64,000 bases of DNA, taken from NCBI GenBank assembly GCA_963758295.1, contig CAVWUU010000004.1, positions 1 through 64,000 of the forward strand, read 5' to 3'. Position numbers: made by a program. Shown piece after piece: positions 1 to 3,000 of the stretch. Every line of letters begins with the position of its first letter. Positions within the stretch are counted from its first letter, which is position 1. Source of the stretch: Candidatus Eremiobacteria bacterium (GTDB lineage: Bacteria; Vulcanimicrobiota; Vulcanimicrobiia; Vulcanimicrobiales; Vulcanimicrobiaceae).

Positions 1-3000
1 TACGCTGCACCGACGGAATGCTCGCTCCGAGGTAGCGGCTGATTTCGGCGGGGTAGGTTTCGTCGAGAACCGCAACGAGGATGAGGAGTGCGGTCCTCAT
101 TCGCGTGCCAAACAGCAGAGGGGCCGGTAGCTCCCAGGACGGCTTGTCATAGAATGGTATGCCGGACGACATAACTCAGTACTCCTGTTGGTGTACTTTA
201 CTATTCCGAAAAGTGTACCATGAGAGCGCGCCGCGGCACTAGCCCTTTATGCGTGAAGGCCGCGCTCCTGCTACAATAGTAAGGACTTGAGCTCGGCGCC
301 CGGCCTGTCACATTCATGGCAGGCCGGCCGTTGGGGAAACAAAGGAGGGGCCAAATCGTGGAGGAGGTCTACCTCGCAACCCAATCCGCCGCCGGCGTCC
401 AGATTCGCGTCGAGTCCCTCGTTCGCGAGTATCAGACGAAACTTGCGCGCTATTTGCGTCGCATGGTCGGCGACAGTGAAGTCGCTTTGGATTTAACGCA
501 AGACGTATTCTTCGCCGCCTATCGCACGCTGCAATCCGACCCAAATCGGCCGCTCAATGCCGGCTGGCTGTACAAGACCGCGACGAACAGCGCTATCTCG
601 CATCTGCGCCGGAAGAAGATCATTCGGATGCTTCCGCTCGATCGCGATCACGACGAACGCTCGTGGCGTATCGACGAACAGAGTGCCGCGTCGGTCGATT
701 TGCAGGCCGCTCTTTCGCGACTGCCGGGAGATCAGGCCGCGGCCGTGCTGCTAACGAGCTACGCCGGCTACTCATCGCAAGAAGCCGCGACGATGCTTGG
801 CACATCCTCGGACGCCGTTCGCCAACGCGTCTGCCGGGCGATGAAAACCCTACGATCGATAATGACGGAGAAGTGAGTGACTGACGGCTGCCAGCAGGCC
901 GAAGCGCTCGCCGGAGCAATTGCGCTCGGCGAAGCGACCGACGCAGAACGCGAACGATACCGCCGCCACATCGCGGCGTGTTCTTCGTGTTTGGGCGACC
1001 TTGGCGGCGAACGTGAGATCGAACGCGTCATGGCTTCGGTTTCCAATGCACGCGAAAGCGAGACGTGGGAACCGGTTCTCGCGTCCGTTCAATCGAAGGC
1101 ACAGCGGCGCCTGCGATCGTTCTTCCGATTGGGAACGACGATTGCGGCCATCGCCATCGCGCTTTCCTTCGGCATTCATTTTCTTATCGCGTCGGCGGTT
1201 AAGCAGACGGCGCAGGTTATTCCGGTACGCGTGGCTTCCGCAGATTCCATAACGCACGTAACGCTCGAACACCGGCCGCCCCAGCACGCCGCGAAGCCGC
1301 AGCCGCAAGCGCCTGCGCCTTCACCGCGGATGCTGGTCGTGCACAACGTGATCACGTTGAAAGCGCCGCCGCAACCGCACGCGGAAGCGATGCGTAACGC
1401 CTCCGTTGCCGTGCAACCGACGGAAACCAAGACCACGACGGTCGTTGCGCACAACGAGCCGGCGGAGTCGGATGGAAATTCCGACGTTCCGATTTGGCGC
1501 CGCGGCATCGATCCGATCCATCATCGCACCCCATCGGCGCAAGCGCCGCCTCCTACGCTGATCGGACGGGCCGAATCGATTGCGATGACCCCCAGCATGT
1601 CCGTGCGCGACGTCGTGCCGCTCGGCGGCGATGCCGCGATCAATCCCGAACCGCCCATGATCGCTTATCGCGAAGGCGCAGAAGGCACGACAGCATTCGA
1701 AGTGAGCATCGACGAACGCGGCGCGCCCACGAAGTGCACGATTACCAAATCTTCAGGGTATCTCGTGCTCGATGATGCCGTCTGCCGCGCCGCCATGAAA
1801 GCGCGCTTCTCCCCGAAACTCGTTAACGGCCGCGCGGTGCCCGGCATCTACCACGACGCTTTCACTTTCCGCAGCAGCGGAAATAACGAGGGGATCCAAC
1901 AGTAGCCTCCGCTCTATGAGTGCCGGGCGCGCAGGGAGCAGGGTGTCTCGATGGGGAGCCGGCGCTCCGAGCGCATCGTGCGCTCGTCGTCGCCTGCGGC
2001 ACGCTTTTTCGCAACATTAAAATGAATATGGCTTCCTGCCAATTGCGAAAAAACGCGGGCCTCCGCTCTATGAGTGTCGGGCGCGCAGGGAGCAGGGTGT
2101 CTGGATGGGGAGCCGGCGCTCCGAGCGCATCGTGCGCTCGTCGTCGCCTGCGGCGCGCTTTTTCGCAACATTAAATTGAATATGGCCTCCTGCCAATTGC
2201 GAAAAAGCGCGAGCCTCCCCATCGAGACACCCTGCTCCCTGCGCGCCCGACACTCATAACGCTCCATGTACATGCCTCGCAGCCGCTCGGCACCGAAAGT
2301 TTGCGACGCCCGCGTCATGTGACATGCCTCGCAGCCGCTCGGCGCCGAAAGTTTGCGACGCCCGCGTCATGTGACATGCCTCGCAGCCGCTCGGCGCCGA
2401 AAGTTTGCGACGCCCCCGTCATGTACATGCCTCGCAGCCGCTCGGCACCGAAAGTTTTGCGACGCCCGCGTCATGTACATGCCTCGCAGCCGCTCGGCAC
2501 CGAAAGTTTGCGACGCCCCCGTCATGTACATGCCTCGCAGCCGCTCGGCACCGAAAATTTGCGACGTCCCCGTCATGCTGAGCTCGTCGAAGCACAGGCG
2601 CATCAAAAAAACCGCTGATATGCGCCCGTCCTTCGACTACGCGGCTACGCCGCTGCTCAGGATGACGGGAGAATGCGCGTCATGCGGAGTGTGTCGAAGT
2701 AAAAGCTGTGCTAATTTGAGGAAAGCCTACGACGCGGCTACGCCGCTGCTCACGATGACGGGGGAATGCGCGTCATGCGGAGTGTGTCGAAGTAAAAGCG
2801 CATTGCAACTGTGCTAATTTGAGCAAAGCCTACGACTAGGCGGCTACGCCGCGCTTACGATGACGGGGGAATGCGGGTCATACGGAGTGTGTCGAAGTAA
2901 AAGCTGTGCTGAATTTAAGCTAAGCCTTCGAACTAGCGGTTGCGCCGCTGCTCAAGATGACGGTGTGCTTCGTCGCCGAGCGGCTGCGAGGCGTGCGGCT

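Follow-up and report, generated by a model that had tools for sequence, protein, structure and literature searches.

Why should an anti-sigma factor carry TonB's C-terminal domain, and what would a regulator of this kind control? The question is raised by two adjoining genes near the start of a 64,000-nucleotide stretch of DNA from a Candidatus Eremiobacteria bacterium (the whole stretch analysed here, termed the window), where a gene for an ECF sigma factor is followed by one encoding a zinc-motif head, a membrane helix and a TonB-like periplasmic part. The features discussed below are collected in the table.

Table. Features of the sigma/anti-sigma locus (window coordinates) and of the unlinked candidate target
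Feature	Coordinates	Strand	Evidence or detail
Putative autoregulated ECF promoter: -35 GTCAC (307-311), 17-nt spacer, -10 CGTT (329-332)	307..332	+	Cross-locus conservation
Ribosome-binding site of the sigma gene, AAGGAGG	342..348	+	9 nt before GTG 358
ECF (group 4) sigma-70 factor gene, 172 aa	358..876	+	Pfam, NCBIfam
Anti-sigma gene, 342 aa, GTG start: ZAS head, membrane helix, Pro-rich linker, TonB C-terminal domain	877..1905	+	
Cytoplasmic anti-sigma domain, residues 1-67, zinc motif (C/H)5 ... H31-x3-C35-x2-C38	877..1077	+	zf-HC2, model, alignment
Membrane helix, residues 85-108, with S97-x3-H101, a TonB/TolA-type motor-binding motif	1129..1200	+	Sequence
Two conserved beta-prone, proline-flanked stretches: residues 125-133 ITHVTLEHR and 152-162 MLVVHNVITLK	1249..1362	+	
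TonB C-terminal domain, residues 241-333, in which C287 and C303 are invariant	1597..1875	+	Pfam, model, Foldseek, hhalign
Unlinked TonB-like gene, 235 aa, candidate sigma target	G000:C1:336285-336992	minus	

A conserved sigma/anti-sigma pair

The product of the first gene contains the Pfam domains Sigma70_r2 (residues 21-87, E 2.9e-14) and Sigma70_r4_2 (residues 114-165, E 1.2e-13) and scores well above the cut-off of the NCBIfam sigma70-ECF model TIGR02937 (71.8 against 42.9 bits). The presence of regions 2 and 4, the absence of region 3 and the length of 172 aa place it among the ECF (group 4) sigma factors, and among solved structures mycobacterial SigE comes closest to it (E 4e-17). Translation starts at GTG 358, and A/G-rich equivalents of the ribosome-binding site occupy the same place in other loci. 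The stop codon TGA (874-876) abuts the GTG (877) of the anti-sigma gene, in agreement with the initial annotation, which had the two genes in immediate succession at these coordinates.

Furthermore, the pair is conserved as a unit, as had been claimed. At 29 of 29 non-self loci (28/28 if the unpublished genome of L003 is left out) the gene directly upstream, with the same orientation and abutting frames, is a sigma orthologue (72-93% identical). Relatives are all titled Eremiobacterota or Vulcanimicrobiota, save for three probably mislabelled bins. The description of the anti-sigma homologues likewise held, all 119 non-self proteins among those listed covering 85-100% of the query at 292-384 aa and carrying PF03544.

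The head of the second protein matches zf-HC2 above its Pfam cut-off (residues 5-38, E 1.5e-5, 25.4 against 22.2 bits), and its predicted structure consists of four helices (3-16, 22-34, 36-42 and 44-61; pLDDT 87-97), which together with the zinc motif identify a ZAS (Class I) domain. Among 28 representatives of 50%-identity clusters of the family, R29, H31, C35, C38, G44 and E45 are present in every protein, while Y28 (27/28), G43 (26/28), R50 (27/28) and a C or H at position 5 (27/28) are near-invariant. The stretch YRxH...GGExExER had been described as invariant throughout; this stands for the residues found in all 28, but because Y28, G43 and R50 have exceptions in the wider sample, it holds only nearly for the rest.

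Behind the head, a proline-rich linker (10 Pro among the 34 residues 134-167) separates the single membrane helix from the TonB_C end, a layout proposed at the outset and borne out by Pfam, sequence and fold. Pfam found no FecR domain (PF04773) in the protein. The RsrA model TIGR03988 matches weakly (E 5.9e-5; 23 bits, where the cut-off is 62.5), and among solved anti-sigma factors only one matched, the membrane protein in 3hug (E 0.59). The assignment of the 877-1905 product as a ZAS-type single-pass anti-sigma factor is supported by its sequence, and the adjacency of the two genes, with abutting frames at all 29 loci, predicts that it binds and inhibits the sigma factor.

TonB-like parts of the anti-sigma factor

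In TonB the motor-binding element is a membrane helix with an S-x3-H motif (PMC12204202, PMC10907165). The initial annotation held that the anti-sigma head takes the place of TonB's ExbB/D-binding N-terminus. We found that the helix behind the head still bears S97-x3-H101, which suggests that TonB's motor-contact element is kept rather than replaced. The motif is rare: of the genome's 365 strongest membrane-like segments 2 have it, as do 0 of its 5 other zf-HC2 proteins, and by eye the helix shares 9 of 15 residues with the genome's 217-aa TonB. Within the family, S-x3-H is kept in 13 of the 28 representatives and lost in 15.

The two beta-prone stretches that follow are both conserved in the family alignment, and the model shows a strand at 152-157. 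TonB's D-box strand binds ExbD (PMC10907165), and it is possible, on weak grounds, that these stretches are D-box-like handles for ExbD; co-folding of the periplasmic domains of the two ExbD paralogs with residues 110-170 gave a score of 0.01, which speaks neither for nor against such a contact. In an hhalign comparison, residues 89-137 align weakly (E 1.4e-4, probability 53%) with the helix and juxtamembrane region of the TonB-like paralogs described below.

The periplasmic end of the protein is, as modelled, a true TonB C-terminal fold. Pfam detects TonB_C at residues 260-332 (E 3.3e-15), the domain is predicted with pLDDT >90, and its best Foldseek matches are all TonB C-terminal domains. 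The model superposes on TonB domains from receptor-bound structures (6i97_D, TM 0.81, rmsd 1.9; 9dc4_T, 2gsk_B and 2grx_C), and in a family comparison with the clade's canonical TonB it is the C-terminal domain alone that aligns (hhalign E 9e-13). No other periplasmic part is conserved as well as this domain, whose last strand is present in all 28 full-length representatives. C287 and C303 are each present in 28 of 28, at positions specific to this family. We set aside a role for them as a periplasmic redox sensor: two cysteines are likewise invariant in the clade's canonical TonB, though at different positions, and it is simpler to take the C287-C303 candidate pair as a structural disulfide.

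A shared putative promoter motif and a TonB-like paralog

The motif GTCAC-N17-CGTT precedes the sigma gene at 30 of 30 loci, with CGTT 25-34 nt before the sigma start, while the spacer and the flanking columns vary. Ten further loci of genus g4 have the motif before sigma in nine cases and CGCT in the remaining one. We found the same pair of elements (GTCAC/CGTT, spacer 16-18) just upstream of a gene for an unlinked TonB-like paralog at 22 of 30 loci, against a chance expectation of 0.1 per 30 windows, and three more loci have CGCT. Because this putative promoter stands at the paralog at 22 of 30 loci, the conserved output would be the TonB paralog and not a receptor.

Five further paralog loci from pair-holding genomes gave CGTT in three, CGCT in one and no motif in one. 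The paralog-upstream motif is absent from all four genomes that have the paralog and no anti-sigma match (G101, G059, G111 and G197). Counting against the circuit, the motif is missing or degenerate at 5 of 33 paralog loci in pair-holding or unchecked genomes. In G000 the paralog and sigma promoters are laid out alike, CGTT being followed at the paralog by 20 nt containing GGAGG and then by ATG. Across the G000 genome the motif is not in excess, with 19 occurrences at the family spacing compared with 10 and 21 at neighbouring spacings; it is the conservation of two sites across genomes that argues for a regulon.

The paralog itself appears to combine a bona fide motor-coupling N-terminus of TonB with a divergent C-terminal domain. 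S19 and H23 are invariant in 26 of 26 sequences, and the helix and juxtamembrane region aligns with the canonical TonB family (E 7e-12). Pfam matched no family, and the top 11 fold matches of the C-terminal domain are all TonB C-terminal domains, at weak scores (best E 9e-3). G199 and G160, two genomes with the anti-sigma factor, have no paralog match at E<=1e-8.

Several other occurrences of the motif in G000 were considered. A site at C4:1305305, before a 448-aa gene, was dropped, the gene being found in only 1 of 5 relatives and at 28% identity; those at C4:1093662 and C1:424224 fall inside long ORFs; and one at 55120-55145 of the window overlaps what is likely the start of a Nudix-like ORF and was judged a chance match. 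The site at C6:121332, some 475 nt ahead of a gene for a 1251-aa receptor, recurs only in a genome of the same genus, and that at C3:48227 lies 11 nt before an ORF for a 330-aa exported protein.

The proposed circuit, its rivals and related systems

We propose that the locus encodes a self-regulated ECF sigma/anti-sigma switch in which the anti-sigma factor is derived from TonB and the conserved output is a second TonB-like protein, a reading to which we give a probability of roughly 0.55. Under this proposal, the zinc-motif head would, as in its family, keep the sigma factor at the inner membrane, and the periplasmic part of the TonB-like remainder probably senses some condition of the Ton system or the outer membrane. 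Regulated proteolysis or a change of conformation would be the likeliest means of freeing the sigma factor, which would then use the GTCAC-N17-CGTT promoters of its own operon and of the unlinked TonB-like gene, adjusting the supply of an alternative TonB-like transducer. There are hints that such a circuit may tune outer-membrane transport capacity. How the amount of TonB is matched to competing receptors is poorly understood outside iron control. If the reading holds, a TonB-shaped sensor is tied to the expression of a TonB-like protein, providing a concrete circuit, open to testing, in a soil phylum that is widespread but uncultured.

No receptor gene adjoins the pair at any of the 30 loci, and the pair is not linked to exbBD; moaA, a GNAT-like gene and a gene for a photolyase are its neighbours. 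Canonical Ton genes lie elsewhere, as had been noted, in the order exbB-exbD-exbD-tonB-tonB (G000:C4:1090198-1093218), and the anti-sigma gene lacks the linkage to exbBD (C4:1.09 Mb) that marks a TonB gene. The genome has 17-19 TonB-dependent receptor genes (17 barrel and 19 plug matches), 0 matches to the STN signalling domain in a profile search of this 82% complete genome, and a single FecR-domain ORF, in a 756-aa protein. Among the sequencing runs listed for window positions 1-2000, DNA runs have shares of at most 0.14, and no RNA run is among them.

The receptor genes, the absence of STN matches and the lone FecR-domain ORF speak for taking the anti-sigma factor, as first suggested, as a FecR-less cell-surface signalling device: with its TonB domain it would bind the Ton box of a receptor loaded with ligand and report that receptor's state directly to the sigma factor. 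The modelled superposition on receptor-complexed TonB domains is consistent with the idea, which has been proposed in print for ECF255 (PMC7826278). However, no receptor lies beside the pair, and the one receptor-associated motif site (C6) does not recur beyond the genus. In genus g4, moreover, 7 of 10 loci encode a form that ends right after helix alpha-2 and lacks the last, Ton-box-pairing strand, and the genus keeps the sigma factor, its promoter and the paralog promoter; Ton-box binding is thus unneeded for the conserved core. We consider direct reporting by a receptor unlikely, and this natural loss offers a ready-made comparison.

The short forms of g4 and the loss of S-x3-H in 15 of 28 representatives would also fit a generic envelope-stress switch, in which the TonB-like part is a mere spacer or anchor, for example shielding a site-1 protease site, and the Ton system is uninvolved. 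TonB_C is indeed reused on many proteins other than TonB: all of 77 hits outside the family carry it, many in 2-7 copies and three together with a BlaR1-type M56 peptidase, and 0 of the 77 have zf-HC2. It is hard to credit as coincidence, however, that the sole conserved target beyond the pair's own operon should be TonB-like too, and the strong conservation of the C-terminal domain, down to its last strand, argues against a mere spacer; this explanation too strikes us as improbable. In a bolder version, the anti-sigma factor could be a working TonB, its S-x3-H helix docking on ExbB-ExbD and its C-terminal domain reaching receptors, so that pulling by the motor or lost engagement frees the sigma factor, Ton load is measured mechanically and a spare TonB-like transducer is made. 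We regard this version as quite doubtful. If true, it would make the protein a force- or proton-motive-force-gated anti-sigma factor and a homeostat of Ton capacity.

Zinc has a structural role in membrane-bound ZAS proteins, RslA and ChrR among them. The complete ZAS site (C/H5, H31, C35, C38) and the weak match to the RsrA model could nonetheless point to a cytoplasmic thiol/redox switch of the RsrA type, with oxidation of the zinc site freeing the sigma factor and the periplasmic part irrelevant. Against this stand the membrane anchor, the large conserved periplasmic domain, a solved match that is itself a membrane protein and a target that is not a thiol-stress gene, and we hold it to be very improbable.

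The combination of anti-sigma factor and TonB_C is already known, together with the idea of Ton-box sensing. The initial annotation had allowed that ECF catalogues might list it, and we found it as the Bacteroidetes group ECF255 of ECF classification 2.0 (Casas-Pastor et al. 2021; PMC7826278), with an anti-sigma factor at position +1, one membrane helix and an outer TonB_C, all of which occur here; in its authors' proposal, the signal is sensed when the anti-sigma factor contacts a Ton-box transporter. As described there, ECF255 belongs to another phylum and differs in its promoter (TATGGAT/GCATCT, here GTCAC/CGTT), in its conserved -1 gene (vWA/DUF3520, here moaA) and in an added carboxypeptidase-regulatory-like domain, which Pfam does not detect here. 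A TonB-type helix and a TonB-like target are not part of that description and set the present pair apart. Our literature searches for an anti-sigma factor with TonB_C, a TonB C-terminal domain or a fusion found none save the ECF catalogue; PMC7406223 does not mention TonB, nor does the accessible part of PMC12204202 mention anti-sigma factors. A catalogued but unstudied class of TonB-domain anti-sigma factors would thereby gain its first predicted promoter and target.

As in FecI/FecR/FecA, a single-pass inner-membrane regulator would hold an ECF sigma factor in a cell with TonB-dependent receptors, but here there is no FecR domain, STN-bearing receptor or linked receptor, and the regulator resembles TonB itself, whereas FecR-type regulators are clients of TonB. 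With TonB of the ExbB-ExbD-TonB system the protein shares the S-x3-H helix, the proline-rich linker and the C-terminal fold; it differs in the 80-residue cytoplasmic anti-sigma head before the helix, in a gene unlinked to exbBD, in keeping S-x3-H in only 13 of 28 representatives and in its two family-specific invariant cysteines. The H-x3-C-x2-C motif, the four-helix head, the single helix and the (here predicted) co-transcription with sigma are those of membrane ZAS anti-sigma factors such as the SigL partner in 3hug, from which it is distinguished by a TonB domain as the periplasmic part and a sequence match of only E 0.59. ECF41 sigma factors have a C-terminal extension and no known anti-sigma factor. 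Their promoter is TGTCACA-N16-CGTC, and they control themselves and a neighbouring gene (PMC7826278). The -35/-10 pair found here is similar, but the sigma factor, at 172 aa, has no such extension and is accompanied by an anti-sigma factor.

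Architecture and conservation of the pair

The analysis confirms the pair and its conservation. The architecture is the one described in the initial annotation, namely an ECF sigma factor followed by an anti-sigma factor with a ZAS head, a membrane helix and a TonB C-terminal domain. The source genome is 3.03 Mb long and 82% complete, with the window covering the opening 64 kb of contig C4. Pfam assigned Sigma70_r2 and r4_2 to the sigma protein, for which NCBIfam gave only the ECF superfamily model and no equivalog, and zf-HC2 (residues 5-38) and TonB_C (residues 260-332) to the anti-sigma protein. 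The AlphaFold model of the latter, with 28 cluster representatives as input (mean pLDDT 74), contains a four-helix head (3-61), a single long helix (68-111), a linker that is disordered apart from one short strand (152-157) and a compact C-terminal domain (241-333, pLDDT >90). The best Foldseek matches in the PDB were TonB C-terminal domains, including 6i97_D (TM 0.81, rmsd 1.9, 88 columns) and further 9ddz, 9dc4_T, 6fip, 1u07, 2gsk_B and 2grx_C. The Pfam domains, the model and these matches therefore confirm the architecture.

Features of the window and of related loci in the same genome (contig given where outside the window)
Feature	Position	Strand	Remarks
Contig end	1-306		moaA absent, other sequence in its place
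Putative ECF promoter	307-332		GTCAC-N17-CGTT
ECF sigma gene	GTG 358 to TGA 874-876	+	172 aa; AAGGAGG at 342-348
Anti-sigma gene	GTG 877 to 1905	+	342 aa
Three tandem arrays	within 1904-2963		period 154 x2.0 (95% matches); period 52 x6.1 (95%); period 93 x3.3 (83%)
GNAT-like ORF	3046-3615	-	
Photolyase-like gene	3963-4940 and 4813-5385		two overlapping ORFs, different frames
221-aa ORF	5382-6047	-	Cys-rich N-terminal stretch, proline run, DUF4870 membrane domain (E 5e-6)
Rejected promoter match	55120-55145		GTCACA-N16-CGTTG; likely ATG at 55125
TonB-dependent receptor gene	55631-58384	-	917 aa
TonB-like paralog	C1:336285-336992	-	235 aa
Promoter of paralog	C1:337013-337038	-	
Glutaredoxin-like gene	C1:337040-337300		CPYC motif
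Canonical Ton cluster	C4:1090198-1094943		522-aa TonB_C+TPR protein, exbB, two exbD paralogs, two tonB

The claim that the pair is conserved as a unit also stood, with a sigma orthologue (72-93% identical) directly upstream of the anti-sigma gene in 29/29 other loci, or 28/28 without the unpublished L003. The anti-sigma protein was also searched for in 300 further genomes from this phylum, 206 within the same family and 94 outside it; 142 of the former and 2 of the latter have a match at E<=1e-10, and 73 genomes have one at E<=1e-50. When 1.84 billion representatives were searched exhaustively, about 30 full-length clusters came out first, followed by N-terminal pieces and unrelated multi-TonB_C proteins. 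Among the database matches listed, all 119 non-self homologues are full-length with TonB_C. Named relatives carry Eremiobacterota or Vulcanimicrobiota titles, except for members (49-59% identity to the query) on contigs of three bins titled Alphaproteobacteria, Acidiferrales and Verrucomicrobiia (L155, L162, L199), titles that are probably binning or labelling errors. Tandem TonB_C domains, 3-7 copies, were seen in P0161 (1080 aa, 7 stretches), P0217, P0230 and P0246, and three such proteins also carry an M56 peptidase of the BlaR1 type.

Neither this class of architecture nor the proposal of how it senses is new. The supplement of the ECF classification 2.0 describes ECF255 of Bacteroidetes, for which its authors suggest compound sensing through contact with a Ton-box transporter (PMC7826278). 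A lead by family labels comes from the ESM Atlas, in a 299-member cluster of proteins of about 330 aa that is commonest in Aminicenantota. TonB_C is assigned to 99% of its members and zf-HC2 to 98%, and 4 of the 30 nearest clusters have both domains. What is new here is the predicted promoter, its TonB-like target, a helix of the TonB type in some family members and forms that lack a strand of the TonB domain.

No receptor gene was found adjoining the pair among the flanking genes of 30 loci. Its neighbours are moaA upstream (20/30, the moaA stop overlapping the -35 element of the sigma promoter in several), an opposite-strand GNAT-like ORF (28/30) and a photolyase gene (24/30). Because relatives have the latter two ORFs within 1.5 kb 3′ of the anti-sigma gene, the tandem arrays filling this gap look like an insertion in this genome. 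The GNAT-like ORF had no Pfam match and only a weak match to an aminoglycoside 6′-N-acetyltransferase model (E 0.001, 18.9 bits, cut-off 140), and the split of the photolyase-like gene may reflect a frameshift or an assembly error.

TonB features of the anti-sigma factor

In passages of PMC12204202 and PMC10907165, the motor contact of TonB and TolA is a membrane helix with an SHLS motif, and the D-box, a proline-flanked strand just after the helix, binds ExbD. The anti-sigma helix of the window contains S97-x3-H101 and, compared by eye, shares 9 of 15 residues with the 217-aa TonB of the genome. S-x3-H occurs in 2 of the 365 strongest membrane-like segments of this genome and in none of its five other zf-HC2 proteins. 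As a point against a complete TonB, only 13/28 family representatives keep the motif, and 15/28 the His. Against the canonical TonB family profile the anti-sigma factor matched in its C-terminal domain only (E 9e-13), and its helix region matched the paralog family weakly (E 1.4e-4, probability 53%). We conclude that the anti-sigma protein descends from a TonB. The two canonical tonB genes (cluster L032) encode 243 and 217 aa, the 243-aa family having invariant C150 and C227.

A putative promoter and its predicted target

We aligned the regions upstream of the sigma genes on a CGTT 25-34 nt before the start, this CGTT being the anchor and GTCAC not being selected for. GTCAC was found exactly 17 nt upstream of CGTT in 30/30 loci, while the spacer and flanks are variable (<0.45 bit of information per column). 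Scanning the genome with GTCAC[AG]-N16-CGTT gave 19 matches, with no excess over neighbouring spacings, and only five lie outside long ORFs. One perfect match overlaps the likely ATG of a Nudix-like ORF, beside which the TonB-dependent receptor gene runs on the opposite strand; this match was judged a chance occurrence.

One of the five, laid out like the promoter of the sigma gene itself, precedes a gene that is present in 61/121 family genomes. Its 235-aa product has a membrane helix, then a linker rich in Pro and Ala, and ends in a small domain. With a spacer of 16-18, the motif is found shortly before this TonB-like paralog in 22 of 30 loci (22/29 without the unpublished L038), counts that are inflated by kinship, for a chance expectation of 0.1 per 30 windows; three more loci carry a CGCT variant. 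Pair-holding genomes supplied five more paralog loci; the motif is missing from one and present in the other four, in one of these as CGCT. The motif is absent in all four genomes that have the paralog but gave no anti-sigma match in the search of the 300 (G101, G059, G111, G197), a sample outside which the genomes of paralog loci L043, L052 and L060 fall. Because the spacers vary and the motif is missing in the genomes without an anti-sigma match, we accept the site as a predicted regulon member.

The predicted target is TonB-like. Its helix and juxtamembrane part match the canonical TonB family of the clade (E 7e-12, probability 97.5%), S19 and H23 are invariant across 26 orthologues, and the top 11 fold matches of the C-terminal domain are all TonB domains, weak ones (best E 9e-3); Pfam matched no family. 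Among loci L036-L065, a divergent glutaredoxin-like gene occurs in 19 and an arginase-family gene lies 3′ of the paralog on the other strand in 26.

Shortened anti-sigma factors in one genus

At the threshold of the search, all 59 genomes of one genus (g4) match the anti-sigma factor in its head alone. Among ten further sigma loci read from this genus, the sigma gene adjoins the anti-sigma gene in all, and the promoter motif is found in nine, with CGCT in the remaining one. In seven, the encoded anti-sigma factor is 191-201 aa long: its linker is short, and its TonB domain ends directly behind helix alpha-2, lacking the last strand and keeping both invariant cysteines. In solved complexes, beta-strand addition of the Ton box takes place at this last strand. 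Two others have 245-251 aa with the whole TonB domain on a short linker, and in the tenth (L072) both ends match, the frame not being read out. The motif before the paralog is still present in two genomes of the genus (L045, L046). Since the sigma factor, motif and paralog site are kept despite the loss of the last strand, the conserved core would appear to work in this genus independently of canonical Ton-box pairing.
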